64,000 nt of DNA from Gemmiger formicilis (GCA_963612735.1 CAVDWX010000092.1:3439-67438); one strand, 5' to 3'. Counted from the first letter of the stretch, positions 4,854 through 52,949 are shown. The notes: generated by a model from the sequence alone, not told the origin. Made by a program: numbers and translations.

Positions 4854-4882
4854 ATTATACAAAACTTTTTTCGATTTGTCAA
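4854..4882 (-). promoter_or_regulatory. sigma70 consensus promoter (TTGACA-17-TATAAT)
   Basis: Minus strand reads tttgacaaatcgaaaaaagttttgtataatat. Confidence 0.7.
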
Positions 4883-4982
4883 ATTTTTTTCTAAAGTTTT
4901 ACTCAGCACTGATAAAATGAAATAAAATTAGTTCAAATTTAATACTATTTTTCTTTCTCATCAAGCGCTTGGTGTTTTTGGT

Positions 4983-5500
4983 TTAAAAATTTAACAGCAT
5001 ATTCTCCACATTGAGTGGCGGCATCTTCGAATCAAGCGCCGTCATATGGTGCTCATTCCTTATTAGGGAACCAAGTGCGCAACCAATAACGAGTAGCACT
5101 AGGAATCGCAACGATAAGCGGGAATAACGGGCCGAATAAACAATTTTGAAAAGTATGGCCAAATTCGTGCCAATCAATTCCTTCAACAGTTGACTCTTGA
5201 TCTCGCAAGAACATTAATCCCATTTCACATCCACCTCACCAATCAGGACCTACGTTAATGCCGTAAATCCAATAGAATGGTTTAAAAGTAATTTTGTCAG
5301 GAATAAAAATTTTAACAATGGCAAGAATGACTGTAATAATGATGCCTAAAATCGTCATAATAATTCCCCACGTACAAGCAGTTAAATAATACAACCATCT
5401 GTGTTTTAAAACGAATTTAGTTCATTTTGCACACAAATTAAACATAAAATTGCCAATTTTTGAATGTTCATATAAAGGTTTAATTTCCATAATTTCTAAC
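4983..5500 (-). CDS. hypothetical membrane protein (TGA read-through, Trp-rich)
   Basis: Frame continues upstream of ORF 4983..5186 through several TGA codons. It encodes hydrophobic segments. The boundaries are approximate. Confidence 0.4.
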
Positions 5501-5506
5501 CTCCGC

Positions 5507-6166
5507 CTAATTTTTTTCATCTAAATAAATGTAACGATGTCCGTGGAATTTGTAGCCACGTCGTATCGCTCTGGAAATGTGAGTAGAAGGAGCATGATAT
5601 TGATCTGCAACACTTTTTACTGATGGGTAAATACGAATAATATCTCCAGTTTCGGATACTTCAGCTACTTGTCTATATTTTTTATTAAGAGGAACAGCAA
5701 TTTTTTCTTCTTTATTGAAACTCCAGAAAAACCCTCCTGTTTGACTAAAAATTCCTTTGCAAGTTTTTAAAATATTTTGATGTAAACAACCTGTTACACG
5801 TTCAGCTTCATTAGCGCTAACAAACTCATTAATGAAATTGCCTTGTAAATCGTATTGATAAACAGGTGTCTCTAAAAAATTTCCGCAGTCTCCTCCTTTA
5901 GTGCTATTATAACCATTGGTATAAGAATCATAATATTGAATGTAATAAATTTCTTTTTCATTTAATTTATCTTGAGGAATATTTTCTTCTATAGGTTCTA
6001 TTGAAAACTTGTCTATTCCATATGCACGCATTGCTCGATACAAATGAACATCTGAAAATTTACTATAACAACAATGCTGATCTCATCTTCTTTTTAATCG
6101 TTGAATGGTTTGCCCTATATACACTTTATCATTTACAGTGTTGGTAATTTTATAAATCATTCCCAT
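5507..6166 (-). CDS. free-standing GIY-YIG homing endonuclease
   Basis: N-terminus MGMIYKITNTVNDKVYIGQTIQRLKRRWDQHCC has W encoded by TGA in the conserved RW-x-x-H position. It overlaps the end of the permease gene by 17 nt. Confidence 0.75.
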
Positions 6167-7508
6167 TCTCATTCTTTTTGTCCTTTAAAATTAAATTCAA
6201 AAAGATACCAATAATCATAGCTAAAGCTACGCCAGTAAAAGTAAAATTACCAATTGGAACAAACAACCCTCCAACTCCCGAAATTAAAATAATAGAAACA
6301 ATTAAAGTATTTTTTGTATTTTCTAAATCAATCTTTCTCAATTCTTTCAATCCGCTAATGGCGATAAAACCATATAAAATTAATGCGCATCCGCCAAACA
6401 CACAATAAGGAATTGTTTGAACCCATCACATTAAAGGAGCAAATAGTCCTAAAATTATAGCTAAAATTGCGGCTCCAATAACCGGATATATACTTCCAAC
6501 CTTAGTAATTCCGATAACTGCGATATTTTCTCCGTAAGTAGTATTGCCCATACCACCAATAAAACCTCCTACAGCGGTGGCAATGCCATCACCCAAAGCT
6601 GTTTTGTCTAAACCGGGTTCTTCTAATAGATCTTTTTGAATAATATTAGATAAATTTAAATGATCTCCTATATGTTCGCAAAAAGCCACACAACTAACTG
6701 GAATTGCTATCAATAATATTTGAGGAATTTGACTTCAAGTAAAGTGATTATATTTAAAACCTTTAAAAGCCTCAATAAAAGAAAATTTAGGCAATCATTT
6801 CAATTTTGCACCAAAAGAAATCAATTGCATTGATTCATTTCCACAACTCTTTCCAATCAAGGTTAAAATTAAAGCCAATATGTATCCTCCTATAATAGCA
6901 ATTAAAAACGGCAATGTTTTGAGCAATCCTTTACCATAATAAGATAATAATGCAACAATTAACATTGTAAAGATAGCTACTAATAAAGATCAACCATTAA
7001 AATCGATTAATCCGTTTTGCATGCTCCAAGAAGTTGCAAATCCAGCGAGGCCTAAACCAATTAAAGTTACTACAGGACCTACAATAACGGGAGGTAAAAT
7101 TTTATGTAATATATTTGCACCAAATTTTTTAACTATTAAACTTAATAGCATATAAACTAAAGCTACAACAGTTAACCCTAAAATTAAAGCAATGTAATTA
7201 CCACCTGGTTCTTCAGAAGCTCCAAATCCCATAAATAAACAAGCCGACATAATGGGCATAAGGGCCGCGCTTGAACCTAAAAAAACAGGGCTTTTGAATT
7301 TAGTAATAAAAGCATAAATAATTGTTCCAATACCTGCGCTAATAATAGCAGCAGGAACCATTTCAAAACTTTGATAAGTTAAAATAGAAATTAAAGATGT
7401 AGCAACGAACATTGCCAAGCAGTGCTGAATACTATACAATATGATTTCTTTTTTAGAAGGTTTATCTTGAATATCATAAAGTAAATTCTTATTTTTATTC
7501 ATTTCCAT
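6150..7508 (-). CDS. uracil/xanthine permease (NCS2 family, UraA/PyrP-like)
   Basis: Three ORF fragments join in frame through two TGA codons. Contains EHIGDHLNL...ALGDGIATAVGGFIGGMGNTTYGENIAVIGITKV, a close match to the UraA core. Confidence 0.75.
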
Positions 7509-8031
7509 AATCCTCCTTTAGTACCTTAACTAATTCATCACTTGAACAAACTAATTTACCATGAGTTTTTATGGCACCTGTTAAAAATATATTAACATAA
7601 CTCATCTGAGCTTCGCCCGGTTCTTTTTGCATGGCCGCCAATTTTTGTTGGCCAACTTCTCCTTGGCAAGTTAAGAAACCTTCTCGGCAATCATCGTAAA
7701 GAGCATATAAATTCTTTTTTGGGTCGGCGTCAATCATTTGAGTATAAATGCCTATTTCACAAGTGGTTCCTATTGGAGGAGTATCGTTACTGATTACTGC
7801 AATTAATAAATCTGTTTCTTTTAATCGATTATAATCCCCTCAATAAATATCATATGAGGTAGCACATTTTGTTTTATCATTTATATTTTTATTACGATGA
7901 GGAACATAAATTTGTGCATTTGGGAAAATAGGTACTAAACGTTCGTATAATCAATCAAGATACATTCGGTCTTTTTCAGTAAAAATTGGACCGGCTAAAT
8001 AAATTCTATTTGCAACCTTCTTACTATTCAT
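7384..8031 (-). CDS. nucleoside 2-deoxyribosyltransferase-like protein (NDT/Rcl family)
   Basis: N-terminus MNSKKVANRIYLAGPIFTEKDRMYLDW... carries the YLAGPxF motif of PF05014. Two internal TGAs are read as Trp. The 3' end is uncertain because TGA at 7495 is read through in code 4. Confidence 0.55.
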
Positions 8032-10173: not shown

Positions 10174-10202
10174 ATTATACTAAAAATTTTTCGATTTGTC
10201 AA
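10174..10202 (-). promoter_or_regulatory. sigma70 consensus promoter
   Basis: cttgacaaatcgaaaaatttttagtataatata on the minus strand, a perfect -35/-10 with 17-nt spacer. Confidence 0.7.
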
Positions 10203-38147: not shown

Positions 38148-38176
38148 ATTATACTAGATTTTTAACATCTTGTCAA
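38148..38176 (-). promoter_or_regulatory. sigma70 consensus promoter
   Basis: cttgacaagatgttaaaaatctagtataat on the minus strand. Confidence 0.6.
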
Positions 38177-38422: not shown

Positions 38423-38451
38423 ATTATAGCAAATTTTTCACGTTTTGTCAA
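38423..38451 (-). promoter_or_regulatory. sigma70 consensus promoter
   Basis: cttgacaaaacgtgaaaaatttgctataatat on the minus strand. Confidence 0.6.
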
Positions 38452-38694: not shown

Positions 38695-39098
38695 TCTAGT
38701 ACTTCGCCATCTATTTCTTCCCTAAAAGCACACCAAACATCTTCTTCTAAAAAATCACGAATTGCAGGGATTAAGTTAAAAGTAGGTCTTGTCGCTGTAA
38801 AGCGAATATCTTCTACTTGTACATCTACTAATGGTGCTATACCTCGATTTACTCTGATTTCATTAATATCATTAAGACGACCATTATTTTCCCAAATATT
38901 TACTAAATCTTCTTCAGTAAAGAAAGGAATCGATGCACCTTCTTCTACTGGGCGAAAAGTTTTTTGTAAAAATTCATTAAATTTTTCAATATACTCAGCA
39001 TTAAGCTCCATAACATTAATATACTCTACACGTTCAACAGAACGAATTACTAATTGTCTACTCACAATTAATTTCCTCCTTATTTCTTCCAAGGCCAT
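38652..39098 (-). CDS. hypothetical acidic protein immediately downstream of the sigma factor gene
   Basis: 148-aa ORF ending EEEEEPWQ. Its start overlaps the sigma gene stop. Confidence 0.45.
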   Translation of the reverse strand: MALEEIRRKLIVSRQLVIRSVERVEYINVMELNAEYIEKFNEFLQKTFRPVEEGASIPFFTEEDLVNIWENNGRLNDINEIRVNRGIAPLVDVQVEDIRFTATRPTFNLIPAIRDFLEEDVWCAFREEIDGEVLDWEFGMEEEEEPWQ

Positions 39099-39919
39099 GC
39101 TGCCTTTAATTTTTGTAAACTTGCTTTTTCGATTTGTCTAACTCTTTCACGAGTTAAGTTTAATTCAGCTCCAACTTCATCTAAAGTATGAGTTTTTGTC
39201 CAATTAATTGGGTCACCATTTTCAACCTTACCTAAACCCATACGCATTTTAATTACTATTTGTTCACGTGGTTTTAAAACGGTCTTAATTAAATCTTGAA
39301 TTACTTCTTCTTTTTCCTTACGAACTGCAAAATGTTCAGGTGTTTCGCTTCTTGTGTCTGCTTGTAAGTCACTTAAAGTGTCACCATCATCTCCTAATGG
39401 TGTTTCAAGACTTACAGTGTCATAGCGCCAACCTTCCAAGTCAGCAACCTTTTCTACATCGATGCCCATAACTTCTGCGATACGAGCAGGTGTGGCTTTT
39501 CCACCCTTACTTTCTAATTCAGCAATAGTTGCTCTATACTTGTTCAACATTTGATAAATATGAGCGGGAATACGGATAGTTTTTCCGCAATCAGTGATTG
39601 CTTTAGTAATGGCTTGACGAATCCAAGGAGTCGCACAAGTTGAGAAACGATAACCTAAGTCTGGATTGTATTTTTCAACCGCAGTGATTAAACCTAAATT
39701 TCCTTCAGCGATTAAGTCTAACTTTTCCATATGACTGTTTTGATAATTATTTGCAATTGATACAACCAATCTTAAGTTACTATTGATTAATTGTTCTTTC
39801 GCAGCGTGAGCAACTTCAGGGTCTTCGCTTCTCATTTTGTATGCTAATTCTCTTTCTTCATCTGCACTTAATAATTGATATTCACCAATTTCTTTCATAT
39901 ATTTATTTAATGCTGTCAT
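39080..39919 (-). CDS. phage-encoded sigma-70 family RNA polymerase sigma factor
   Basis: Region 2 (LRLVVSIANNYQN...DLIAEGNLGLITAVEKY), region 3 and region 4 (TLDEVGAELNLTRERVRQIEKASLQKLK). Confidence 0.8.
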   Translation of the reverse strand: MTALNKYMKEIGEYQLLSADEERELAYKMRSEDPEVAHAAKEQLINSNLRLVVSIANNYQNSHMEKLDLIAEGNLGLITAVEKYNPDLGYRFSTCATPWIRQAITKAITDCGKTIRIPAHIYQMLNKYRATIAELESKGGKATPARIAEVMGIDVEKVADLEGWRYDTVSLETPLGDDGDTLSDLQADTRSETPEHFAVRKEKEEVIQDLIKTVLKPREQIVIKMRMGLGKVENGDPINWTKTHTLDEVGAELNLTRERVRQIEKASLQKLKAAWPWKK

Positions 39920-39973: not shown

Positions 39974-40002
39974 ATTATACGCCTTTTTGAATGATATGTC
40001 AA
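39974..40002 (-). promoter_or_regulatory. sigma70 consensus promoter for the sigma factor gene
   Basis: cttgacatatcattcaaaaaggcgtataat on the minus strand. Confidence 0.65.
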
Positions 40003-40623: not shown

Positions 40624-40652
40624 ATTATACTCCTTTTTGAACGATATGTCAA
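40624..40652 (-). promoter_or_regulatory. sigma70 consensus promoter
   Basis: cttgacatatcgttcaaaaaggagtataat on the minus strand. Confidence 0.65.
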
Positions 40653-41616: not shown

Positions 41617-41645
41617 ATTATACTAAACTTTTTACTCTTTGTCAA
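41617..41645 (-). promoter_or_regulatory. sigma70 consensus promoter
   Basis: cttgacaaagagtaaaaagtttagtataatat on the minus strand. Confidence 0.65.
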
Positions 41646-43585: not shown

Positions 43586-43587
43586 AG

Positions 43588-44242: not shown

Positions 44243-44271
44243 AGTATACTAAAAGTTTGGCGTTTTGTCAA
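44243..44271 (-). promoter_or_regulatory. sigma70 promoter (TTGACA-17-TATACT)
   Basis: cttgacaaaacgccaaacttttagtatact on the minus strand. Confidence 0.6.
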
Positions 44272-44293
44272 GAAATTTTTTCTAATTCTCGCC

Positions 44294-44862: not shown

Positions 44863-44891
44863 ATTATACTAAATGATTAGCAATTTGTCAA
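44863..44891 (-). promoter_or_regulatory. sigma70 consensus promoter
   Basis: cttgacaaattgctaatcatttagtataatat on the minus strand. Confidence 0.65.
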
Positions 44892-45024: not shown

Positions 45025-45053
45025 ATTATACTAAATGATTGACGTTTTGTCAA
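45025..45053 (-). promoter_or_regulatory. sigma70 consensus promoter
   Basis: cttgacaaaacgtcaatcatttagtataatat on the minus strand. Confidence 0.65.
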
Positions 45054-45212
45054 GAAATTTGTTCGGCAAATGAAAAATTTTTGCGCGACGAACTAAAACC
45101 AAAGACGTCATAGGCTCACTTCAATAGCCGCGCAGATAAAATTGCTGCCGGGAAATGCGCAGATTACTGCCAAACGCTCCAAGAAGGTGCCGGCAAACCG
45201 CGCCCAATCATG

Positions 45213-45290
45213 TGAATCCTATGACAACATAAATTTTAAATCAACATAAATTTTAAATCAACATAAATTTTAAATCAACATAAATTTTAA
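45213..45290. repeat. 17-bp tandem direct repeat x4.5 (aacataaattttaaatc)
   Basis: catgtgaatcctatgacAACATAAATTTTAAATCAACATAAATTTTAAATCAACATAAATTTTAAATCAACATAAATTTTAAATCCacg. Confidence 0.85.
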
Positions 45291-45685
45291 ATCCACGTAG
45301 GCCTATAACTTTGTTGCTGCTGCTCAACTTTATGAAAACGTTTTCATTGCCCTATGCTGAATGTAGATAGCATAAGTACTATTAACTAGCCCGAGTACCA
45401 TTGCCAAGCAACCTTTGGAATGTTACTTCTACATCTGCAAAAAGTGAGCAAATGGCTTGACAAGATGTGGAAAATGTGCTATAATATTATTATAGCTGCT
45501 GCTGCTAATAAGTATCACACTGACCTAGGCACCACAAGTTTGCGGCGCCCCGCCCTCTCCGGCGTCCGGGCATATTTTGTAAACGCTTTCATTTTAATGT
45601 AAACGCTTTCATCGTATGCTTTAATTATGAAAACGTTTTCATAACCATCCTTCCGTCTGCCTCTTACATATGTGCAAAAAGAGAC

Positions 45686-45976
45686 TTATTCAGTCTCTTT
45701 CACTAATGTATATGCCTTAACAGTATTAGTCTTTTCGCCGATTTTGACACCTTTAAAATATACATCGCATACTATTTTGGTGTCTTCAGATATTACTAAA
45801 CCACGCTTTACTAAGGCAGTTACCACGCCACTAGCATATCTAATGCCAGTATCTACTTCAATTTCCATTAAAGTAACAGGATAATTATATCCCTCTAAGA
45901 CAGTTAAGAACGCTTTTTGATTGTCATTTGGTTTCCATACTTTTTCATTTTTGTTTACATTTATTGTTTTCATCAT
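45686..45976 (-). CDS. small winged-helix DNA-binding protein (paralog family member; candidate regulator flanked by palindromic sites)
   Basis: NQKAFLTVLEGYNYPVTLMEIEVDTGIRYASGVVTALVKRGLVI closely parallels 48292..48594. Confidence 0.55.
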   Translation of the reverse strand: MMKTINVNKNEKVWKPNDNQKAFLTVLEGYNYPVTLMEIEVDTGIRYASGVVTALVKRGLVISEDTKIVCDVYFKGVKIGEKTNTVKAYTLVKETE

Positions 45977-46016
45977 TTTAAATTACCTTTTACCTTTCTT
46001 TTTTATTTACACTAAT

Positions 46017-46045
46017 ATTATATCATAGTTTGGTGGCAAAGTCAA
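46017..46045 (-). promoter_or_regulatory. sigma70 promoter (TTGACT-17-TATAAT), class B (-10 context tgaTATAATatta)
   Basis: cttgactttgccaccaaactatgatataatatt on the minus strand. Confidence 0.6.
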
Positions 46046-46552
46046 GAAAAATGTTCTAAAATTTTTATTTTCTTTTTTTCATAAAATTCCTTTTCCTATC
46101 ACCTAACTACAATAATATTATACCACAAAAAGCTCAACTTGTCAACCCATAAACTTATGAAAACGTTTTCCTATCTTTAAGACTTGCTATTCTTGCTGCT
46201 GTAAAAAAATGAAAGCGCTTTCATCTTGCTGCTGCTGCTTTTTCATAAAATGAAAACGTTTTCACGCCGTCGCCACGCGGGCGCGGCATATATATCAAAA
46301 ATTTATGGCTTTATGGTTATATGTATATACATATTTATGTATTGGACATCCGATTTTTGCGTCGAAAAAGGCAGACGGAAGTGAAAAAATCTCCTAAAAC
46401 ATATTAAATTTTAGGAGAAAACGTGAAAAAAGTAAGCGAAAACGTGCAGTTTTAAGTAAAAATGTTGCTGCTGCTGCTTCAAAAATGTTAAAAAGGTGGG
46501 AGAAAGGGGAGGGATAGGAGGGGAAAGGCAGACGGAAGTGGCGAGCAAATTG

Positions 46553-46581
46553 GTTGACAAAGGGAAAGAAAGGGTGTATAA
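46553..46581 (+). promoter_or_regulatory. plus-strand sigma70 consensus promoter inside the control region (antisense to early genes)
   Basis: TTGACAaagggaaagaaagggtgTATAAT with GGCAGACGGAAGTGG 13 nt upstream. A second TTGACA follows at 46601. Confidence 0.5.
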
Positions 46582-46639
46582 TGGCAGACGGAAATGGCAC
46601 TTGACAAAACGGAAATTTCCGTCTACGCAGACGGAAAGG

Positions 46640-46668
46640 GTAAAATAAAAAAGGTCCACTAGGGACCT
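46640..46668 (-). terminator. rho-independent terminator
   Basis: Minus strand ggtccctagtggacc followed by TTTTTTATTTTACC. Confidence 0.6.
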
Positions 46669-46858
46669 GAACCTGTCACGTAGGTATCTTACGACCCGTT
46701 CTTAAGGCAAATGTAGTTTTAGCCAATTATCTTTATTAAGGCAAACAATTAAACCCGATTTATTTTGGTGAAATCTTCCCCTATTTTTGAACGATGAATA
46801 GTAACGTTTGTCCTTTTGTTGAGGATTGGACGTAGCCCCAACCTTTAATTATATTAAT

Positions 46859-46887
46859 ATTATATCATATTTATTTAACTTTGTCAA
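46859..46887 (-). promoter_or_regulatory. class B sigma70 promoter with upstream CAGACGGAAG element; no ORF before the terminator at 46640 (about 200-nt noncoding transcript)
   Basis: cttgacaaagttaaataaatatgatataatatt on the minus strand, with aatcagacggaagtaaac 16 nt upstream of the -35. Confidence 0.55.
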
Positions 46888-46914
46888 GAGAAAGATTGTT
46901 TACTTCCGTCTGAT

Positions 46915-47382
46915 TTATTTTTCTATCATACCAAAATATTTTTCTTGAGTCCAACCATTCCAACCGAATGTCAACAAATATTTTCGATAATGTCTATAAT
47001 TACTATATTCATAACTTTCAGTTTGATAAGAAGAGCCATTACGTATTAAACCATTACATTTCCAACCTAATTCTTTTAGAGTATTTTCAATTTGATTTGG
47101 GGAATATTTGTTATCAAGCTCTATGAAGCCATCAAGTTTTTCTTTGGCTTGATTAATTTTTGTTTGAATATATTCTTTTAAATCTTCTTCCATTATTTCT
47201 TTTTCACATTCAGCAAGTAAAATTAAAGCTCTGTTTTTGGCAATTTCCATTCCTATTAATTCATTAAACTTATCTTGTGGACTACATACAGCAATACCCT
47301 TTAATTCGCATTTGCCTACTTTAATAGTAGCAACAACCTTTCTTTCTTCTTTTAAAATTTGATAACTAATTTGTTTTTCCAT
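46915..47382 (-). CDS. hypothetical protein (155 aa)
   Basis: Intact ORF. Confidence 0.45.
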   Translation of the reverse strand: MEKQISYQILKEERKVVATIKVGKCELKGIAVCSPQDKFNELIGMEIAKNRALILLAECEKEIMEEDLKEYIQTKINQAKEKLDGFIELDNKYSPNQIENTLKELGWKCNGLIRNGSSYQTESYEYSNYRHYRKYLLTFGWNGWTQEKYFGMIEK

Positions 47383-47419
47383 TTTTCTAACCTACCTTTT
47401 CTTTTTTATTTACATTAAT

Positions 47420-47448
47420 ATTATATCATATTTTAATATTCTTGTCAA
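47420..47448 (-). promoter_or_regulatory. class B sigma70 promoter with upstream CAGACGGACAAGG element
   Basis: cttgacaagaatattaaaatatgatataatattaa on the minus strand. Confidence 0.6.
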
Positions 47449-47480
47449 GTATTTTAACTACCTTGTCCGTCTGAGACCGC

Positions 47481-48251
47481 TTACCCTTTATAGGTAATAC
47501 GGTCACCACGAACGAATGATTTCTTATAATCAAACTCTACAACATTTCCGTCTGGCAATACTATCACTTGGTGGAACACTTTTTCAGATGCAACTCTTTT
47601 TGCCTTCGGTAATGCTCTAGTTATGTCGGCGTTTCTTCTAATGCATTCTAATAATATTTCCGTCTCCCATTGCACATCACTTAATGCGGTGTGGTCTTCT
47701 TCAAACTCTTTATTATTAAATAAGTATCTTACTACGCTCTCAACTGTGCTACTAATATAAAAGCCCGTTGCGGTGAACTCTTCCGTCTGAGTCGCCCACT
47801 CTTTATATTCCTTTGTATTAATAATAAATTCATATGCATACGCCCAAATATCAAATATTGGTAGTCCTTCTAAAGGGTTTGCAATCCCTAATCCGTCTGC
47901 TGTGCGTTTGAATTTGTCAACATCAAAGTCACAGTTATATGCATAGCCAAATAATACATTATATTTTTTAATATCGTTTGTCATAGTAGTAAATACTTGC
48001 TTGATATTTCTTAATGTTATCATTCCGTCTGCCACCAACTTATCATACTTGGTTAGTTTGTTTGCACCTACAAAATCATCATTAAGCATATAAATACGAT
48101 TATTATATAAATCTCTTACCAAATAATCTCTAGCCACTAGTACTTTTCCGTCTGCATGTTGAATATTTATATCAACGATTTTATAACCCACATTTAATAA
48201 GTCTTGACTAACTTTTCCAACTGTTTCAGTATCAAATATTATTACGTTCAT
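47481..48251 (-). CDS. DnaQ-like DEDDh 3'-5' exonuclease
   Basis: Exo I VIIFDTETVGK and Exo III HTALSDVQ. Contains seven co-oriented GCAGACGG-type motif copies at about 100-130 bp spacing, mostly as Ala-Asp-Gly codons. Confidence 0.7.
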   Translation of the reverse strand: MNVIIFDTETVGKVSQDLLNVGYKIVDINIQHADGKVLVARDYLVRDLYNNRIYMLNDDFVGANKLTKYDKLVADGMITLRNIKQVFTTMTNDIKKYNVLFGYAYNCDFDVDKFKRTADGLGIANPLEGLPIFDIWAYAYEFIINTKEYKEWATQTEEFTATGFYISSTVESVVRYLFNNKEFEEDHTALSDVQWETEILLECIRRNADITRALPKAKRVASEKVFHQVIVLPDGNVVEFDYKKSFVRGDRITYKG

Positions 48252-48291
48252 AGTCTTCTCTCCGTCTGCCCGCTTGGGGTTGGGTGCCGAT

Positions 48292-48594
48292 TTACTCGGC
48301 TACCCTTTCAAGATTTGCTAAACTATATTTTTTTACGTGGTCGGTTTTGTGTCCGATAATTGTATCACGATAAACGATATTACTAATTCGGTCAACTTCC
48401 GTTGCTACAATAAGACCACGACCCATTAAAGCGGTCATTACACCAGTTGCAACTTTTACGCCAGTATCAATTTCGATATCTATTAGCATTGCTCCGTCTG
48501 GGTAATTCTTTAGAATTTCTAAAACTTTTGCTTGATTTTCGTTTGGGGCCCATTCCTTTTTAGTTGTTGTTGTTTTTTTGATTTCTTTTGCCAT
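48292..48594 (-). CDS. small winged-helix DNA-binding protein (paralog family member)
   Basis: NQAKVLEILKNYPDGAMLIDIEIDTGVKVATGVMTALMGRGLIV. Confidence 0.55.
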   Translation of the reverse strand: MAKEIKKTTTTKKEWAPNENQAKVLEILKNYPDGAMLIDIEIDTGVKVATGVMTALMGRGLIVATEVDRISNIVYRDTIIGHKTDHVKKYSLANLERVAE

Positions 48595-48599
48595 AATTT

Positions 48600-49215
48600 T
48601 TTACCTACCTTTACTTAAATTTTTTAATGGCTTGGCTACCATTTACATAAATATTATATCATATTTACGTTTATATGTCAAGGGCTTTTGCTTATCTTTT
48701 CCGTCTGCCAATTTTCTTACTTGGCATACCATTGATTAAGTTTATTACCACTTTACACCTAATATTATACATCTTTTAAAGCCATTTGTCAAGGCTTTTA
48801 CTTCCCTTTTCCGTCTGCCGGTCAAGGTTGGTATAGGTGGTTTTTGTTTCGGGATGACCACCAACCCCATATTTATTTTACACTAATATTATATCACATT
48901 TATTTATTTTTGTCAAGCGTTTTATTTTTGCTTTCCGTCTGCCGCCTTTGTGGCTGCTAAACCTTTCTTTTATATAAATATTATATCATAAATAAATTAA
49001 TATGTCAAGCACTTAACTTATCGGCGTCCGTCTGCCTTTGGGTTTAGGCCATTGTGATGTCTATTTAACTCTTGCACTAATATTATACACCTTTTGCATT
49101 TGAAAGTCAAGCAATAAAACTTGCCATTTCCGTCTGCTTCTCTTCTCTTCCGTCTGCGGTAGACGGATAACAAGGCCAACATTTTTTCTTTCCGTCTACC
49201 CTTTTCGGGCGAAGG
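48600..49215 (-). repeat. tandem array of five roughly 105-bp promoter units, each [GCAGACGGAA element]-N13-16-[TTGACA]-N17-[tgaTATAATatta]
   Basis: -10/-35 pairs at 48652..48680, 48764..48792, 48888..48916, 48980..49008 and 49082..49110, each preceded by ggcagacgga(a/c). No ORF separates the units. Three more motif copies in both orientations at 49128-49200. Confidence 0.7.
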
Positions 49216-49218
49216 GGT

Positions 49219-49491
49219 TTATTCCCCTTCTTCATCGTCTTCTAAGCATTCGTCCCAAAAGTCATCTTCGTCATCGTCGTCATCTTCATACCAAGCGTGG
49301 CTTCCGTCTGCTTCGATGTCTTCTGCTTCGGCAATACTTAGAAAACCTTCATAATCGTCTTCAAAACTTGATAATGCTCTCGTTTCAATTTCTTCAACAC
49401 TCATACTTTCTAGTCTTTCGCCGTCTTCTAATTCAATGACAACACTTCCGTCTAATGTAATTTTTAATGGAACTCTTACTAATTTACTCAT
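49219..49491 (-). CDS. hyper-acidic small protein (candidate DNA mimic)
   Basis: 90 aa, ends YEDDDDDEDDFWDECLEDDEEGE. About 40 percent D/E overall. Confidence 0.45.
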   Translation of the reverse strand: MSKLVRVPLKITLDGSVVIELEDGERLESMSVEEIETRALSSFEDDYEGFLSIAEAEDIEADGSHAWYEDDDDDEDDFWDECLEDDEEGE

Positions 49492-49530
49492 AATTTTTTA
49501 CCTACCTTTTCTTTTTTTATTTACACTAAT

Positions 49531-49560
49531 ATTATATCATACTTACATATCACTTGTCAA
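49531..49560 (-). promoter_or_regulatory. class B sigma70 promoter with upstream GGCAGACGGGAAA element
   Basis: cttgacaagtgatatgtaagtatgatataatatta on the minus strand. Confidence 0.6.
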
Positions 49561-49588
49561 GCCTTACGCTTTGTTTTTTCCCGTCTGC

Positions 49589-49804
49589 CTAGTTTTGCCA
49601 TTCACCTTCTAAATCAAAGTATAAACTGCCCAACCATTCACCATTAAGACTATATATTCTTAATTCTTGACCTATTGAAAATCTTTTTACATCATATTCA
49701 ACATCAAGTCTTTTTAATTGTTCTTGAATTTTTTCTAAATCAGTCATTCTCTTTTTCTCCTTTCCGTCTGCTAAGCAAACCATAATATAAACACGTTTAA
49801 GCAT
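49589..49804 (-). CDS. hypothetical small protein
   Basis: Intact 71-aa ORF. Confidence 0.35.
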   Translation of the reverse strand: MLKRVYIMVCLADGKEKKRMTDLEKIQEQLKRLDVEYDVKRFSIGQELRIYSLNGEWLGSLYFDLEGEWQN

Positions 49805-50025
49805 ATTCCCGCTAAATGCATAGCAATTCCATTTATATGCCTATCAGTTGCAAAGTCTTTAATTAACCCTAAACTTGCAATAACTAAACCAAACACCGCA
49901 CCAACATTAAACCCCACAAACACAATCAAACCTACATTAATTAGTTGTAAAATGGCTCTAATATCGTTCATTTCAAACTTGTATCTTTGTTCTATCTTAA
50001 AAAATCTTTTTACCAACTCTTTCAT
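49771..50025 (-). CDS. small two-TM membrane protein
   Basis: LIVFVGFNVGAVFGLVIASLGLI and LAGICLNVFILWFA hydrophobic segments. Confidence 0.4.
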   Translation of the reverse strand: MKELVKRFFKIEQRYKFEMNDIRAILQLINVGLIVFVGFNVGAVFGLVIASLGLIKDFATDRHINGIAMHLAGICLNVFILWFA

Positions 50026-50069
50026 AATTTAGTCCTTTCCGTCTGCCGGTGGTAGTGATAGGTCAGTGC

Positions 50070-50585
50070 CTACCACTCAAACCATCCGTCTGGGTATATT
50101 TCCCCTATATGTTCTATAAGTGGCTTTACTATTTTTATGCTTTTACCTTTGCCACTTGCTATCCATTCCCTACAATTTTTGCCGTAATCATCTAATAATA
50201 TGCCTCCTTTAGTTTTTGCATAATCGGCTTTATTTTTACCAACTCTCATTATTATGATATGGCTTTTTTTAATTTGTGGATAGTGATATTTTAGCCATTC
50301 CCTTTTATCCCTATCCGCTTGTTTATTGGGGCTTGCGGATAGAATATATAAATTTATATATGGGCTTTTTAATAGACTTTCAAAGCCTTCTTGATTAATT
50401 GGTTTAAGTTTTTTAAAGAAGCCTTTTTCAGTTTTAAAGCGTTCAAGTGCATTAATTTGTCCACCAAAGTCAGCAATAACGCCATCCATATCGCAATATA
50501 CATTTATTTTTAAACCCTTATAAAGGCTTTTTAAGTTTCTTTCTTTAACTAGTTTCTTATATTGTTTAGTCAATTTTTTATTCAT
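50070..50585 (-). CDS. 5'(3')-deoxyribonucleotidase (NT5C-like HAD phosphatase)
   Basis: HAD motif I CDMDGVIADF identical in pattern to the NT5C family DMDGVLADF. Confidence 0.65.
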   Translation of the reverse strand: MNKKLTKQYKKLVKERNLKSLYKGLKINVYCDMDGVIADFGGQINALERFKTEKGFFKKLKPINQEGFESLLKSPYINLYILSASPNKQADRDKREWLKYHYPQIKKSHIIIMRVGKNKADYAKTKGGILLDDYGKNCREWIASGKGKSIKIVKPLIEHIGEIYPDGWFEW

Positions 50586-50662
50586 TTTATCTTTTACCTA
50601 CCTTATTATTTTATTTTATTGTGGGCTTGTTTTAGGTGTAAGCCCTAACCACCTTTAAACTC

Positions 50663-51217
50663 TTAGAAACCTAACAACTCATTTAATTCTTGTATTGGTG
50701 TTCCGTTATTTGTTGGTTTAATGTGTCCGTAATTATCATAAACCAATGTTTTAGGTGTATTTAAGAATATGCCCTTATTGGTTATTAAGATAATTTTTTG
50801 AGTATTTTTTCTTAATTCGCTACCATATGCAAAACCCGTAGTAAACTTTATTTCGTAATTGGTTGTATTTATTAACCCTAAATCACTTAATAAATCACTA
50901 TCTAATTTATAAGTGTTTAAATCATTAAAACCATTTTTTGCCCTAGTGCTTACGCCCTTGATAGTGTCGCCCTTAACATAAGATTTTATTATTATTTTAA
51001 ATAGTATTTCAGCAAGTGAGCCACGATTTACCATAACTAAGCCTTTTGATTTAGTGCATTCTACTTGCACCATTTCAAAGTCGCAATACTCACAATTTAA
51101 TAATTTAAGTAATGTATCATTACTAGTTTTTGCTTTTGCTTGTGCTAGAGTGTTTAATTCTAACATCGCTTTTAATTCTTTTTTGTTTAATGTTAAGATT
51201 TGTTTGTTTGTTGTCAT
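50663..51217 (-). CDS. hypothetical protein (184 aa)
   Basis: Intact ORF. Confidence 0.4.
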   Translation of the reverse strand: MTTNKQILTLNKKELKAMLELNTLAQAKAKTSNDTLLKLLNCEYCDFEMVQVECTKSKGLVMVNRGSLAEILFKIIIKSYVKGDTIKGVSTRAKNGFNDLNTYKLDSDLLSDLGLINTTNYEIKFTTGFAYGSELRKNTQKIILITNKGIFLNTPKTLVYDNYGHIKPTNNGTPIQELNELLGF

Positions 51218-51245
51218 AATTTTATACCTACCTTTATTTATATTT

Positions 51246-51412
51246 TTGTAAGTGTGTTAAGTCCGTCTATCTCAACCACCTTACATACAATATTATACCA
51301 TATCTTAAAACTTTATGCAAATAATATGCATTATTAAATTAAAATATTTTTTAAATATTATATGTAAGTGTTTTTTGTTTCCGTCTATCTCAACCACCTT
51401 ACACATAATATT
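51246..51412. repeat. two 40-bp direct repeats containing CCGTCTA and a TATAAT-like element
   Basis: gtccgtctatctcaaccaccttacatacaatattatacca at 51248 and tttccgtctatctcaaccaccttacacataatattatacca at 51373. Confidence 0.7.
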
Positions 51413-51479
51413 ATACCACAAATAAAATAATAAGTCAATAGAAAAACAAAAAATCTTTTATGAAAACGTTTTCATTTTA

Positions 51480-51650
51480 CATTTTACACATCAAAAACAA
51501 AAATAAAATCAAAATATATAAATAAAGATATGATTTTTAAATTAAATCATATCAAAAATAAAAATATAAAATATATAAAATAAATAATTAAAATAATTTT
51601 AAAATATAAACAAGATAAAAACTAAATCAATTAATTTTAATATATTCTTA
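51480..51650. other. extreme AT-rich tract (over 85 percent A+T) flanked by repeats and a G-rich/C-rich tract; candidate DNA unwinding element
   Basis: A-tracts and AAAAT repeats with no ORF, followed by gggcggtggtgtgttagtggtgttggtgtgtagtgtaaaggtgggcgggggtag and ccccacaccccctctgg. Confidence 0.4.
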
Positions 51651-51834
51651 TCATGGGCGGTGGTGTGTTAGTGGTGTTGGTGTGTAGTGTAAAGGTGGGC
51701 GGGGGTAGAATAAATTTTTTTGAAATTTTTTCTTTTTCCCCACACCCCCTCTGGCCAATCCGGCATACGACAATTTTTAGATATGACAAATTTTTGACTT
51801 CGATGATTTTTTGATTTCTACTTTTTATTCCACC

Positions 51835-52885
51835 CAATCTCTCTCGCTCCCATCGTTTCAATCCATCATTCTTCTCTTTCATTTAACCATTTACTGCGAT
51901 CTCCACCCTTACCATCTCAAACTTCTACTACCTCTCAAGTCACCTCATCCGGCCTACTGACCATCGCATACAATCTCTCGTTACCTTTCGCTTCTACTCC
52001 AATCATTTTCTTAATATGAGTATATCAACGTTCACTTATCTTGACAGCCTGTCCAATATAACAAACCTTTTCATCGTTCACTCAACTTAGTCTATAAATG
52101 CCACTAACAGCACCATCAACACTTAATGCCTTAACCATACGTTGAATTTCAGGCAACCACACCTTCTTCCAAGCAACGGTCATAAGTGCTTCCCTTAACT
52201 CAGGATATAACTCCACGACCTCATCCAACAATCCTAACATCCTCTCTTGACTTCTCGTCAGATGAAAAGTTTCAATGTGACGAACGCCTTCTTCTCCTTC
52301 GCCACCTATCAAACCAAGGGCCTGACGAAAACTTTCTTGCAGATGCGAAAGCTCATTTTCTACGTCCTTCATTTTTTGTCCTAGTTCCTCTAACCTGTGA
52401 TGACTTTGACTCTCTTCATTTTTCATTGCGGTTAAAAGTTCCTTCTTGGCAGCCTCATCAGCTTCAAGTTCCCGCATTCTTTCTTGTAACAACTGGCAAC
52501 GCCCTGATAAACCTTCGTACTGTAATGCCTCTTTTTGCGCTTCTTCCAGTTCTACTTTTACAGTCCTGTAATGTTTAAAAGTATCGGCCAACCTTACTTT
52601 CACTTCATCTATAGTGCGGCATAACTCTTCCTTCTCGGCACTCCGCGAAGCTAGTTGAATCTGCGCCTCTTTCAATTTAGGTTCAAGTTCATCGTGAAGA
52701 CTAGTTTGCAGTATTTCTTGTTTATCTTTTAATTCTTGCAGATGTCTATTATGAATATCAAACAGCTCATCTAATTCTTTAATTTGTTTTAATTTATTGC
52801 GAATTTGACTATTTAAAGCTACTATGAACCCTAATTCTACAAATAGACCTAAAACTATTAGTATTATTCCTATTATCTTTATCAT
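51835..52885 (-). CDS. membrane-anchored coiled-coil protein with Trp-rich C-terminal extension (TGA read-through)
   Basis: N-terminal TM IIGIILIVLGLFVELGFIVAL, then a long heptad-rich region. In code 4 the frame continues past TGA at 52082 for about 80 more codons. Higher GC than its surroundings. Confidence 0.45.
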
Positions 52886-52920
52886 TAATTATCTTCTTCC
52901 TTTCTTCGTTCCTCTCTATT

Positions 52921-52949
52921 ATATTATACTAATTTTTTGACCACTTGTC
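52921..52949 (-). promoter_or_regulatory. sigma70 consensus promoter (first early promoter adjacent to the divergent late region)
   Basis: cttgacaagtggtcaaaaaattagtataatataat on the minus strand. Confidence 0.65.

Follow-up and report, generated by a model that had tools for sequence, protein, structure and literature searches.

The window analysed here, a stretch of 64,000 nucleotides, is best explained as part of an uncultivated tailed phage of about 100-140 kb from the gut or rumen, with a host of the low-GC Firmicute type and a distant kinship to SPbeta and Geobacillus E3. It contains 25 perfect TTGACA-N16-18-TATAAT sites, 23 of them on the minus strand, against 0.08 expected from shuffling, and allowing one mismatch adds 15 more, for 40 in total. 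Promoter-like sites are almost all intergenic and located 5' of leftward genes; four of the 40 (2986 and 54427 on the plus strand, 4041 and 56712 on the minus strand) look like intragenic chance matches. Among the roughly 33 intergenic minus-strand sites, most lie 28-390 nt 5' of a minus-strand ORF or tRNA, and for five the automated ORF table lists none within 400 nt. The dense consensus promoters reported in the preliminary description are thus real, as is their density of one per small gene or ORF-free unit, and every promoter coordinate it named is occupied. The same layout is repeated in the relatives L001, L122, L245, L277 and L288. We propose that the leftward early genes are served by these ~33 sigma-A-type consensus promoters, built on a single chassis.

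Two sets of features recur on this chassis. Class A promoters (12 sites) read '..TTTAG-TATAAT-AT..' behind an A/T-rich upstream tract, and are spread from 4.8 to 45 kb with TAG ahead of the -10, a class A site also lying at 52923..52951. Class B promoters carry GCAGACGGAA 16-18 nt 5' of the -35 together with a TGn extended -10, and are found only from 46.5 to 49.6 kb. With at most one mismatch, GCAGACGGAA is present at eight minus-strand promoters (46887, 47448, 48681, 48792, 48916, 49008, 49110 and 49560) and at one plus-strand promoter, 46554. The features are as follows.

4854..4882, minus strand: consensus promoter, A/T-rich upstream tract
10174..10202, minus strand: class A promoter for the DNA ligase gene
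23809..23837, minus strand: class A promoter
25246..25274, minus strand: class A promoter (TATACT) for the dUTPase gene
32270..32298, minus strand: class A promoter
33518..33545, minus strand: consensus promoter, N16 spacer, 5' of tRNA-Trp
35838..35866, minus strand: class A promoter 5' of the Ro/TROVE gene
37671..37699, minus strand: class A promoter, no ORF 3' of it; ORF-free stretch towards tRNA-Ala and the Ro/TROVE gene
38148..38176, minus strand: class A promoter
38423..38451, minus strand: consensus promoter, A/T-rich upstream tract, TGC ahead of the -10
39080..39919, minus strand: phage sigma factor, 279 aa, Pfam Sigma70 regions 1.2, 2, 3 and 4
39974..40002, minus strand: consensus promoter, sigma operon subclass, immediately 5' of the sigma factor gene
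40624..40652, minus strand: consensus promoter, sigma operon subclass, ..CAAAAAGGnG-TATAAT
41617..41645, minus strand: class A promoter for a 302-aa gene
44243..44271, minus strand: class A promoter, TATACT, an 11/12 match (the 44.2 kb site of the preliminary description)
44863..44891, minus strand: class A promoter for the 163-aa double winged-helix gene 44294-44785
45025..45053, minus strand: class A promoter, TTTAG-TATAAT, 5' of a 160-nt ORF-free unit
45100..46700, unstranded: ORF-poor regulatory hub at the distal edge of the array
45651..51393, minus strand: oriented motif array [C/T]AGACGGA[A], best form GGCAGACGGAAA
45686..45976, minus strand: gene for a 96-aa paralogue of the 100-aa winged-helix protein, target of promoter 46017..46045
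46017..46045, minus strand: hybrid promoter, class B core and leader TGA-TATAAT-ATTAGTGTAAAT, A/T-rich upstream tract, no motif
46117..46145, minus strand: TG-type consensus promoter, no motif, one-mismatch cre-like palindrome immediately 5'
46554..46582, plus strand: motif-bearing promoter on the opposite strand, motif on the plus strand 16 nt 5' of the -35
46859..46887, minus strand: class B promoter of a predicted ~200-nt ORF-free transcript ending at terminator 46652-46668
47420..47448, minus strand: class B promoter for the 155-aa gene 46915-47382
47481..48251, minus strand: 256-aa gene with a DEDDh-type exonuclease motif pattern
48292..48594, minus strand: gene for a 100-aa winged-helix protein, candidate motif reader
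48653..48681, minus strand: class B promoter for the 100-aa winged-helix gene
48764..48792, minus strand: motif-bearing promoter, tandem unit, no TG, gatgTATAAT
48888..48916, minus strand: class B promoter, tandem unit with a self-complementary stretch (judged by eye, not folded)
48980..49008, minus strand: class B promoter, tandem unit
49082..49110, minus strand: motif-bearing promoter, TTGACT, lacks TG, opens the series of five tandem promoter units
49531..49560, minus strand: class B promoter, N18 spacer, TGA-TATAAT, motif GCAGACGGGA 18 nt 5' of the -35, for the 90-aa acidic protein gene 49219-49491
50070..50585, minus strand: NT5C-family 5'(3')-deoxyribonucleotidase gene, inside the array
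51410..51438, minus strand: TG-type promoter, TTGACT, perfect cre box 22 nt 5' (51461-51474)
52923..52951, minus strand: class A promoter, the first leftward one, divergent from the late/structural operon

The motif marks a module of about 6 kb (45.6-51.4 kb) that adjoins the packaging genes. No ORF of at least 60 aa lies between the five tandem promoter units, and both L001 and L288 conserve the ORF-free unit of promoter 46859..46887, a compensatory change having occurred in its terminator stem. At promoter 51410..51438 the motif is in the transcribed leader (51386), and a weaker duplicate promoter is found at 51292-51321. The hub combines six perfect cre-consensus palindromes, (AGC)n runs, a 17-bp repeat in four tandem copies (45225-45293) and convergent promoters at 45457 (plus), 46045 and 46145 (both minus); the motif flips orientation within it, with a palindrome at 46617-46636. 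The class B genes encode a dNMP phosphatase, a DEDDh-like exonuclease, small winged-helix proteins (two or three in the module) and an acidic protein, a content that resembles an immediate-early host-takeover set more than the middle class previously assigned to them. The SPO1 host-takeover module and the early genes in the terminal repeats of Twort-like phages are compact clusters of small genes that are expressed first and later shut off, each gene having a very strong sigma-A promoter with consensus -35 and -10, often TG-extended. The window's module is likewise a small-gene cluster with strong sigma-A promoters of its own; we know of no oriented word tiling the coding sequence of SPO1- or Twort-like modules.

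The preliminary description divided the promoters into two sequence classes. Their features are significantly associated, the motif with TG (Fisher p=0.036 in the window, 1.5e-6 across six genomes) and TAG with absence of the motif, to which it is nearly confined (p=0.016 and 2.4e-4, respectively), and the two groups are spatially separate. However, unsupervised clustering of flanks and spacers gave no split (silhouette 0.127, shuffled maximum 0.141), and intermediates occur. Promoters 46045, 46145 and 51438 have the TGn-TATAAT-ATTA core but lack the motif, the first two lying within the 46.0-49.6 kb to which the upstream element had been ascribed; conversely, three of the nine motif-bearing promoters (48792, 49110 and 46554 on the plus strand) have no TG. 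Classes A and B are real as feature sets, with one chassis common to both. Class B cores in the window are perfect at both -35 and -10, save 11/12 at 49110, with an extended -10 in 6/9, and the class B genes share a conserved unit that spans everything from -35 to ATG.

A phage sigma factor is indeed encoded. The protein is RpoD/SigA-like and truncated, region 1.1 being absent, and the recognition helix of region 4.2 (TRERVRQIE) matches that of SigA. With the -35-reading helix intact, no new promoter specificity is implied; judging from its sequence, this factor most likely recognizes TTGACA-type promoters like the others and sets no separate class. The promoter subclass of its operon is also found 5' of the sigma gene in L288.

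The upstream element is not confined to promoters; most of its copies lie elsewhere. The motif occurs 27 times in the window against 1.4 expected, 25 copies falling within 45651-50046. Counted as AGACGGA, the array has 26 copies on the minus strand and five on the plus strand (46371-46636, and 49161, the inverted partner in a hairpin), hence ~31 copies in 5.7 kb; outside it, the ~2 per strand over 58 kb equal the chance level by a base-composition estimate. Only 9 of the ~31 are associated with promoters. The others, in the same orientation, are found inside coding sequences, at ribosome-binding sites and after stop codons, and from 47.47 to 49.59 kb the usual gap is 81-133 bp. The 256-aa exonuclease-like gene alone has six copies in its coding sequence, in two reading phases and 110-132 bp apart, plus one in its ribosome-binding site (48260-48269). 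We found no report in the literature of a motif tiled like [C/T]AGACGGA[A].

The same organization is seen in 17 related motif-bearing genomes or loci (terminase 65-97% identical), the densest of which pack 70-75 copies into 5.5-7.8 kb. Four of the five densest arrays are spaced significantly more regularly than random placement would give (CV 0.41-0.53; at most 1/2000 random placements equally regular; no gap above ~300 bp). Coding sequence holds 51% of the copies (n=667) and makes up 55% of the array span, with all three codon phases used. Orthologous exonuclease genes carry 2-8 copies, mostly at lineage-specific positions and with amino acids altered, and the motif is absent from the orthologues of the motif-less relatives L264 (53% identical protein) and L126. 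In L288, 18 copies in 3.4 kb are followed by none on the same strand over the next 17 kb, which is class A territory. The motif is kept in L124 in spite of a shift to 46% GC. Orientation is strongly biased, with GACGG found 755 times in sense and 149 times in antisense, and 75:0 in L265. In three lineages the motif also occurs in inverted pairs, TCCGTCT-N4-5-AGACGGA, the arrangement expected of a DNA binder capable of dimerizing.

At promoters, the geometry is fixed. In 126 of 161 pairings of the motif with a TGnTATAAT promoter (17 loci), the distance to the -10 is 45, 46 or 48 nt, while almost no sequence information is contained in the intervening 12-16 nt or in the 5' half of the -35/-10 spacer; the distance is constrained and not just inherited. 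Motif orientation tracks promoter orientation, because the opposite-strand promoter 46554 has its motif on the plus strand, again 16 nt 5' of the -35, and it has counterparts with that distance in L001 (12140, minus) and L288 (2351, minus).

The preliminary description proposed that a phage activator binds the element and makes class B the middle class of a T4/T5-like switch linked to the phage sigma factor. The fixed upstream position and set orientation agree with this, as do the centre of the site near -55 to -58, where class-I-type activators sit, the sigma gene itself, and nine relatives in which a weak -35 (cTTGaat/cTTGttt) behind the motif is paired with an extended TGnTATAAT -10. Nevertheless, perfect-core promoters with an extended -10 are not expected to need an activator, a -10 stands at the right distance from only 178 of 658 copies family-wide (27%, leaving 73% without one) and half of the copies are within genes. 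Together with a SigA-like sigma and the immediate-early look of the genes, this makes such a switch unlikely. T4 itself times early genes through a short word common to many transcription units, as we propose for the window; unlike at MotA promoters, the -35 is intact here, no MotA-type -30 box replaces it at these promoters, and no homologues of RegA, RegB, MotA or AsiA were detected.

Alternatively, the motif may work on RNA or on the non-template strand, as a target of an endoribonuclease or translational repressor that inactivates immediate-early messages, or as a re-loading site for an elongation factor. In T4, the RegB/RegA word lies at or near ribosome-binding sites, the RegB target being a 4-mer, mostly at Shine-Dalgarno sites. 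Near-absolute sense orientation is more natural for this mode of action than for a duplex-binding protein, and many copies fall precisely in the interval from the Shine-Dalgarno sequence to the ATG, or overlap the former, while 39 lie within 10 nt past a stop codon. Density is alike in coding and non-coding sequence, and a spacing of ~100 nt or less would fragment or coat entire transcripts. Left unexplained are the fixed distance to -35 and -10 over variable sequence and the flip with the divergent promoter, which includes the copy 5' of it; moreover, the scanned module proteins showed no RNase or RNA-binding domain. We consider this reading doubtful, but it could coexist with a role in DNA.

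Strict polarity and even tiling would also suit a Chi-like or Ter-like barrier that protects first-entering DNA by halting a one-way nuclease, helicase or polymerase. A 9-10-mer every 80-130 bp is far denser than any known Chi or Ter system; given canonical Chi polarity, the motif points the wrong way for a genome end on the terminase side, and promoter geometry is again unaccounted for. Replication terminator protein is among the weak fold matches (ScpB/MarR/RTP-type) of the 100-aa winged-helix protein (AF2 model, pLDDT 79). The flip at 46.63 kb adjoins the 1.6-kb repeat-rich non-coding hub, and the dNMP phosphatase, putative nuclease and DNA-binding proteins parallel the first, pre-early genes of T5, whose first-step-transfer DNA (Dmp, A1, A2) is followed by a 1.66-kb region of repeats and palindromes (10.1101/866236; 10.64898/2026.04.02.716235). 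In both phages, ~1.6 kb of non-coding direct repeats and palindromes match a host factor site, DnaA boxes in the injection-stop region of T5 and cre-like boxes in the window. However, the T5 gene families (Dmp and A1 metallophosphatase) differ from the NT5C/HAD and DEDDh-like ones here, as do host group and virion family. A barrier seems improbable. Even less probable, in our estimation, is that the promoter-plus-leader units and their motif serve as cassettes for recombination, reshuffling the small early genes without any dedicated reader. As with T4-type PeSL cassettes, there is one early promoter cassette per small gene and gene content varies at cassette boundaries between close relatives: homology blocks between the window and L001 (~90% identical) break at 49732-49761, 47410-47430 and 46912, L001 has additional cassette-flanked genes, and class B genes have the entire promoter-to-start unit in common. 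PeSLs, however, are only intergenic and impose no oriented word on coding sequence, and shuffling explains neither the gain of motifs at differing positions in orthologous genes, nor their regular spacing, nor their retention over such terminase divergence and a GC shift. Such shuffling is probably a by-product of the repeats and not what they are for.

Our favoured, though tentative, interpretation is that the motif is a DNA address spread over the whole module, through which a sequence-specific factor times what looks like an immediate-early host-takeover gene set. The fixed geometry, the flip with the opposite-strand promoter, the regular tiling and the nucleotide-level selection inside coding sequences argue for it, as do the persistence in L124, the inverted pairs and the winged-helix proteins of the module. 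Against it stand the sense bias and the copies ahead of start codons, a promoter site in a classic activator position when operators usually overlap the core promoter, and the antisense clusters directly 3' of terminators in L124, which the model does not predict. Winged-helix homologues are present in some motif-less relatives too, and the only gene tracking the motif is the nucleotidase (16/17 motif-bearing versus 0/10 motif-less loci). SPbeta offers a precedent: its early promoters carry a repeated 15-bp element, SPBRE, and a single phage protein, the master repressor MrpR/YopR, binds this word and controls the early genes jointly (PMC10516654). Structural genes of the window's relatives match Pfam YonG/YonD/YonB/YomU models, and a short conserved word at many early promoter regions is common to both systems. 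SPBRE, however, occupies about ten promoter regions, whereas the window family has a 9-10-mer in 31-75 oriented copies, mostly off promoters and half in coding sequence; lysogeny is not evident for the window phage, and no tyrosine-recombinase-fold MrpR homologue was found among ~50 window proteins scanned.

We infer that a single factor, either one of the module's small winged-helix proteins or a host protein, would read the word [C/T]AGACGGA[A] on DNA throughout this discrete module. At promoters, where the motif starts 45-48 nt 5' of the -10, roughly -63 to -51, RNA polymerase would be within its reach, and same-orientation copies every ~80-130 bp across genes and spacers would let it occupy the whole module. 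The module would thereby be switched as a unit, apart from the class A promoters, which have an A/T-rich UP-like tract instead. Because the class B cores of the window are already perfect, the factor may here mainly limit or shut off the immediate-early module, whereas the same contact could stimulate it in those relatives whose -35 is weak.

The window has a GC content of about 33%. Its genes include topoisomerase II, DNA ligase, helicases, RNase H, dUTPase, PhoH, a Ro/TROVE protein and four tRNA-like genes, with terminase, portal and capsid genes from 53 kb on. Genes run leftward at 1-15.9 kb and 23-53 kb, and rightward at 16-22.7 kb and from 53.1 kb, the start of the late/structural block. 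Megablast of window 44-52 kb against 50,697 phage records gave no match, and the nearest cultured phages by terminase (Geobacillus E3, an Alicyclobacillus phage, the Tsamsa group and Brevibacillus Sundance) share only about 30% identity. Public metagenomes contain hundreds of relatives with terminase identities of 65-97%; their contigs are 100-139 kb long and come from human gut and rumen (rumen as judged from sample names). Loci of such uncultivated phages carry L numbers here. Genome collections gave a single match, a phage-like contig of 48% identity that had been assigned to an Acutalibacteraceae MAG. Pfam models of the SPbeta proteins YonG, YonD, YonB and YomU match the terminase-adjacent structural genes of the relatives. 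The window ORFs 53100-53429 and 53514-54194 (+ strand) correspond to one YonG_N-like gene of 332-356 aa in L122, L124, L126, L245, L246 and L247, which probably codes for the small terminase; the split of about 84 nt between them reflects a frameshift, a small insertion or a sequencing error.

Several other features of the window deserve mention. The Ro/TROVE homologue at 34114-35655 (- strand; PHROG 850, E=5e-112) adjoins a tRNA-Ala-like gene (36608-36689) and an ORF-free stretch of about 0.8 kb (36900-37670) that a class A promoter (see below) at 37699 would drive, has no Rfam match and might code for a Y-RNA-like partner of the protein. The stretch 42200-44300 has a GC content of 41.7% against about 33%, is ORF-poor, is preceded by class A promoters and has no Rfam match; it may contain structured RNAs. 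Over 22.5-53 kb as a whole, Rfam returned nothing but tRNAs, both at the gathering cut-off and at E<=1. A tRNA-Sec-like gene at 23034-23130 (- strand) has the anticodon TCA according to ARAGORN and scores 43.8 bits with the Rfam tRNA-Sec model, whose gathering score is 47. The 532-aa protein at 17247-18845 (+ strand) has a Hint/intein-like domain in its C-terminal part, and homing-endonuclease-type genes of the GIY-YIG and NUMOD1 types are found at 1245-1931 (-) and 5507-6043 (-). The 172-aa ORF at 6990-7508 (- strand) covers only the first ~140 positions of a xanthine/uracil permease family model (E=4e-20) and appears to be a fragment or a truncated auxiliary gene.

Perfect TTGACA-N16-18-TATAAT sites number 25 in the 64-kb window, 23 of them on the - strand, against 0.08 expected from dinucleotide-preserving shuffles; allowing one mismatch adds 15 and brings the total to 40. 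The promoter coordinates in the preliminary description were all correct. Four sites (2986+, 4041-, 54427+ and 56712-) lie inside long ORFs and are chance-like in appearance. The remainder are mostly intergenic, 28-390 nt 5' of a co-oriented ORF or tRNA, and five precede ORF-free units. The hexamers are 17 ± 1 bp apart, as in sigma-70/sigma-A promoters, and it is ordinary for a large Firmicute phage to have a strong sigma-A promoter in front of each small early gene. At 48640-49140 (- strand), five tandem consensus promoters follow each other at 93-124 bp with no ORF of at least 60 aa between them; each unit consists of the upstream motif described below, a promoter and a short variable stretch, and these units may be small RNAs or an RNA polymerase sink. 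Another ORF-free unit of about 200 nt (46640-46852, - strand) has its promoter at 46859-46887 and its terminator at 46652-46668. L001 and L288 share it in strongly conserved form, the terminator stem showing a compensatory change. It has no Rfam match, and no thermodynamic signal emerged when the 46.65-46.85 kb transcript was folded (z=0.68). The opposite-strand consensus promoter 46554+ would yield an RNA antisense to it.

The preliminary description had divided these promoters into a class A, with TAG before the -10, and a class B, with an upstream motif; an A/T-rich upstream tract further marks class A, and a TGn extended -10 class B. The division stands as two feature sets, and not as two sharply separate families. 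The stretch from about -60 to -38 has an A+T content of 76% in motif-less promoters and of only 58% in motif-bearing ones, because in the latter the G+C-rich word occupies that place. The upstream tract of motif-less promoters often reads, by eye, AAAAATTTTTC...AAATTTC-TTGACAA and may serve as an UP element (alpha-CTD contact), the measure itself being one of composition only. TAG stands immediately 5' of the -10 in 12 of 27 motif-less and none of nine motif-bearing promoters of the window (TAG-motif association, p=0.016, and 2.4e-4 over six genomes). TG at -15/-14 is present in six of the nine motif-bearing promoters of the window and, in six genomes, in 48/54 motif-bearing against 35/72 motif-less promoters (p=0.036 for the window, 1.5e-6 for the six genomes). 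Hybrids occur in both directions: a class B core and leader lacking the motif are found at 46045, 46145 and 51438, and a motif lacking TG at 48792, 49110 and 46554+. A third variant, ..CAAAAAGGnG-TATAAT, recurs upstream of the sigma operon in the window and in L288. Clustering on all flank and spacer positions produced no split (silhouette 0.127, shuffled controls up to 0.141), so that two sharply distinct families were rejected and a single chassis with module-specific add-ons is preferred. The cleanest distinction is spatial, since the motif-bearing promoters all lie at 46.5-49.6 kb and the others elsewhere. This layout is conserved in L288 (sigma factor 89% identical), where the first 2 kb contain seven motif/TG promoters and lead into the ORF-poor hub also seen in the window; the 17 kb that follow have about 14 consensus promoters whose upstream tracts are A/T-rich, and that strand is free of motif copies there. 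Motif-plus-TG promoters are also found 5' of the terminase in L001, L122, L245, L246, L247 and L277.

The phage sigma factor noted in the preliminary description is encoded at 39080-39919 (- strand). RpoD/SigA models match it along regions 1.2-4.2 (E about 1e-71 to 1e-67), as do Firmicute SigA chains of solved structure (E about 1e-53), and the protein is 87-92% conserved among relatives with a terminase about 75% identical. Region 4.2 reads LTRERVRQIEKASLQKL against VTRERIRQIEAKALRKL in SigA, with TRERVRQIE conserved. Region 2.4 reads FSTCATPWIRQAITKAI against FSTYATWWIRQAITRAI, with FSTCATPWIRQ for FSTYATWWIRQ (Y to C, W to P), and the extended -10 segment (region 3.0) reads IPAHIYQMLNK against IPVHMVETINK, with HIYQ for HMVE (E to Q). 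In the light of sigma-70 structure-function work, the residues that contact the -35 are kept, and the changed positions are two aromatic residues of -10 melting and the glutamate of TG recognition. The protein appears to be a truncated RpoD/SigA paralogue, the phage's own version of the primary sigma, and would read TTGACA-type promoters. It may differ in how it handles -15/-14 (TG versus TA), which would be a speculative link to the two classes. With RpoD/SigA as its best matches and region 4.2 conserved, its presence would not by itself indicate a new promoter class. The region upstream of the late/structural operon (window 52952-53099; also L122, L245, L246 and L247) has TATAAT or TATACT after a long T-rich tract (TTTTTGTTTTTTT) and lacks TTGACA in most relatives. 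Late transcription probably uses something else, and this region may represent a distinct late promoter type.

The motif of class B is more than a promoter element. It is an oriented word of 9-10 bases, [C/T]AGACGGA[A], and only nine of its copies in the window lie upstream of promoters. GCAGACGGAA, with at most one mismatch, occurs 27 times in the window against 1.4 expected, 25 of them within 45651-50046. The - strand has 28 copies of the core AGACGGA and the + strand 7, and of these 26 (-) and 5 (+) fall within 45.6-51.4 kb; outside this module it is at chance level by our own base-composition estimate. The 256-aa gene at 47481-48251 holds six copies at a spacing of 110-132 bp, in two reading phases (A/P-D-G and Q/E-T-E), and one more in its ribosome-binding site. 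Further copies lie within the winged-helix, nucleotidase and acidic-protein genes, immediately 5' of start codons (copies at 49762, 50037 and 45651), and 3' of stop codons. A literature search for the motif string returned primers only, and string matching found no report of the word or of a comparable tiled array. To our knowledge, and by eye, it matches none of the Spo0A, DnaA, LexA and CodY boxes. Pattern scans of IMG/VR (motif plus TTGACA; motif pairs) gave mostly single chance matches and one true relative.

The array recurs in many, and is missing from some, of the related loci, in which AGACGGA was counted over up to 10 kb 5' of the terminase.

Copies of AGACGGA 5' of the terminase (sense/antisense relative to the early genes)
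L262: 75/5
L265: 75/0
L273: 72/4
L254: 70/4
L260: 53/7
L252: 49/5
L253: 47/6
L257: 43/7
L277: 31/4
L246: 25/7
L245: 24/4
L122: 21/11
L124: 18/22
L126, L264, L271: 0/0
L248: 0/2
L267, L275, L279, L280: 1-2 in total

The 17 motif-bearing loci together have 667 copies; predicted CDS contains 51% of these and accounts for 55% of the array span. At promoters the logo reads GGCAGACGGAAA, and in other places [C/T]AGACGGA[A]. Copies in dense arrays are spaced far more evenly than at random: the CV is 0.41-0.53, the largest gap is 170-300 bp, and at most 1/2000 random placements were as regular. The word is also retained in L124 despite a compositional shift to 46% GC. In-CDS copies fall into all three codon phases (253/72/18, 17 loci) and at non-homologous positions in orthologues, and protein-level repeats were therefore rejected as the origin of the in-gene motif. 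An alignment of the orthologues of the 256-aa protein from eleven genomes shows 2-8 copies per gene, in mostly lineage-specific columns, with amino acids altered to fit the motif (X-D-G, Q/E-T-E/D, R-R), and orthologues from the motif-less L264 (53% identical) and L126 have none. This lineage-specific placement, with amino acids changed to fit, indicates that the word is selected at the nucleotide level and has been gained repeatedly. A second recurring word, GTAGGTTA(A/G), is found in the early regions of L262 and L265, where it sits in the ribosome-binding site (AAAGGTAGGTTAAAAAnnATG) and also away from start codons.

The 256-aa protein has invariant D-x-E, N-x2-F-D and H-x4-D columns, which make it a candidate DEDDh exonuclease; it has no database match, and a PDB sequence search with the exonuclease profile was empty. 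The module further encodes an NT5C-family deoxyribonucleotidase (50070-50585, - strand), a very acidic protein of 90 aa, a small membrane protein and two small winged-helix paralogues. An AF2 model of the 100-aa paralogue (pLDDT 79) gave weak generic Foldseek matches to the winged helices of ScpB, MarR-family proteins, replication terminator protein and TFE (E>=0.006). The nucleotidase gene is present in 16 of 17 motif-bearing and none of 10 motif-less loci. In gene-content profiling of 10 kb per locus, which is confounded by phylogeny, it was the sole perfect correlate of the motif, and no DNA binder tracked the motif. This co-occurrence may go back to common descent, to a role like that of T5 Dmp, or to a connection with nucleotide-pool or DNA-modification chemistry.

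At its distal edge the module ends in an ORF-poor regulatory hub of 1.6 kb (45.1-46.7 kb), where motif orientation flips. The hub carries six perfect matches to TGWAANCGNTNWCA, the consensus of the Firmicute catabolite-responsive element (cre), and a seventh lies at 51461, against about 0.1 expected.

Perfect palindromic cre matches
45333-45346, perfect palindromic cre match
45578-45591, perfect palindromic cre match
45598-45611, perfect palindromic cre match
45628-45641, perfect palindromic cre match
46210-46223, perfect palindromic cre match
46251-46264, perfect palindromic cre match
51461-51474, perfect palindromic cre match

One match lies 22 nt 5' of promoter 51438, a near-match lies 5' of promoter 46145, and similar boxes are found in L001, L122 and L288. 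These sequences suggest that host CcpA and carbon status may feed into the early decisions of the phage, or that the phage may have a LacI-type binder of its own. Also in the hub are a perfect 17-bp x4.1 tandem repeat (45225-45293) and AGCAGCAGCA runs at 45312-45324, 45494-45506, 46227-46239 and 46463-46478. The (AGC)n runs are conserved even in the motif-less L126, where they are the most over-represented 8-mers, and both kinds of repeat could be origin or iteron-like elements. Consensus promoters in the hub are convergent: those at 45457-45485 (+) and 46017-46145 (-) flank the 96-aa winged-helix gene, so that an antisense transcript would cover it. The arrangement is kept in L001 and L288 and looks like a genetic switch. 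In T5, the first-step-transfer region encodes the Dmp phosphatase, the A1 nuclease and the DNA-binding protein A2, followed by a 1.66-kb repeat/palindrome region with host DnaA boxes (10.1101/866236; 10.64898/2026.04.02.716235). The array module and its hub resemble this region by analogy of layout, not homology; this pre-early region and the SPO1 host-takeover module are the nearest to it in gene layout.

Where the word accompanies a promoter, its position is strict. In 126 of 161 pairings of a motif with the -10 of a TGnTATAAT promoter (17 loci), the first A of the motif lies 45, 46 or 48 nt from the first T of the -10, which places it at a fixed upstream position on one helix face, as for a class-I factor site. 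Stacked promoters show a near-invariant motif, TTG of the -35, TG and TATAAT, and almost no information in the 12-16 nt gap between motif and -35 or in the first half of the spacer. Motif orientation also follows that of the promoter: the + strand promoter 46554 has a + strand motif 16 nt 5' of its -35, a pattern shared by the equivalent promoters of L001 and L288. A -10 matching at least 5/6 positions is found at the 45-48 nt offset for 178 of 658 copies (27%), other offsets being at background. As -10 enrichment is confined to this offset and to 27% of copies, the in-gene copies were rejected as cryptic promoters. The cassettes coincide with homology-block boundaries between the window and L001, as expected if the word were simply carried in recombination cassettes, but a geometry conserved while the sequence is free favours contact with the transcription machinery over plain cassette copying, and pure recombination is very improbable as an explanation.

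The preliminary description placed an activator at the upstream element and saw in class B a T5/T4-like early-to-middle switch. The fixed position agrees with this; however, the class B cores of the window have consensus hexamers (11/12 at 49110), six of nine with TG, and would not be too weak to work alone, and 73% of all copies have no -10 at the required distance, with 51% in CDS. A middle class under such an activator is therefore quite unlikely, and a promoter element is not what the word as a whole represents. T4 MotA-type middle promoters are excluded by the intact -35 of class B (TTGACA; 11/12 at 49110), and no MotA box is found near -30. Weak -35 hexamers (TTGTTT/TTGAAT) behind the motif occur solely in relatives. 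An action at the RNA or non-template level, with clearance or repression of the RegB/RegA kind, would fit the extreme sense bias (755 sense against 149 antisense GACGG), the word's frequent place in the SD-ATG gap or over the SD in dense genomes (...AAGGTAGGGCAGACGGAAATG) and the 39 copies within 10 nt 3' of a stop codon (17 loci). We consider it unlikely. Every copy lies 3' of some co-oriented promoter, which makes the DNA and RNA/non-template readings computationally inseparable. None of the models considered cleanly predicts the arrangement in L124 (46% GC), where 4-6 antisense copies cluster directly 3' of the intrinsic terminator of each early gene (2212-2351, 3577-3665, 4351-4427 and 5023-5137), with TCCGTCT-N4-5-AGACGGA palindromes and GTTAAC-containing repeats. 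A polar roadblock, or sense-antisense pairing in read-through RNA, is possible there; for the word in general, a polar barrier or Chi-like function is improbable.

The closest precedent comes from the related phage SPbeta, in which a 15-bp word, SPBRE, in about ten early promoter regions is bound by the repressor MrpR (PMC10516654). The logic of a repeated word in early promoter regions is the same, but the present motif differs in copy number, in-gene placement and strict polarity. No integrase/recombinase match that could correspond to MrpR, a protein of tyrosine-recombinase fold, was found with Pfam, NCBIfam and PHROGs among ORFs of about 90 aa or more in the 64-kb window. We lean, tentatively, towards reading the word as an address on the DNA that one sequence-specific factor recognises. 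Next to a promoter it would be positioned to touch RNA polymerase, and its copies along the module would give the factor landing sites of even spacing and common orientation, through which the whole, presumably immediate-early block could be regulated as a unit, independently of the class A promoters with their putative UP-type tracts. Since the class B cores of the window are already perfect, we favour limitation or shut-off rather than activation; the same contact may be stimulatory in those relatives whose -35 hexamers are weak. In a broader form, put forward with considerable doubt, the word would be a previously undescribed phage cis-code, a module-wide address at intervals of about 100 bp on the first-expressed genes, read by a dedicated factor or by the transcribing or entering machinery for control as a unit. 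The address would be written through coding and non-coding sequence, forcing amino-acid changes, and its effect could be to shut the module off, to protect the leading DNA or to clear early RNA.

The observation behind the preliminary description is thus confirmed and its interpretation supported in part, and the tiled oriented word, which was invisible to it, is the unusual part of the finding: a word of 9-10 bases repeated at regular intervals over a whole early module, overriding protein sequence, and conserved across a widespread gut and rumen phage lineage while missing from some family members. The phage appears, in addition, to carry its own primary-type sigma factor, and through perfect cre boxes it may couple early decisions to host carbon status. 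Motif-bearing and motif-less relatives constitute a natural experiment for finding the reader of the word. If a factor does read it, the word would offer a compact, portable means of switching or protecting a gene block, and would provide a handle on the timing of host takeover in uncultivated phages.
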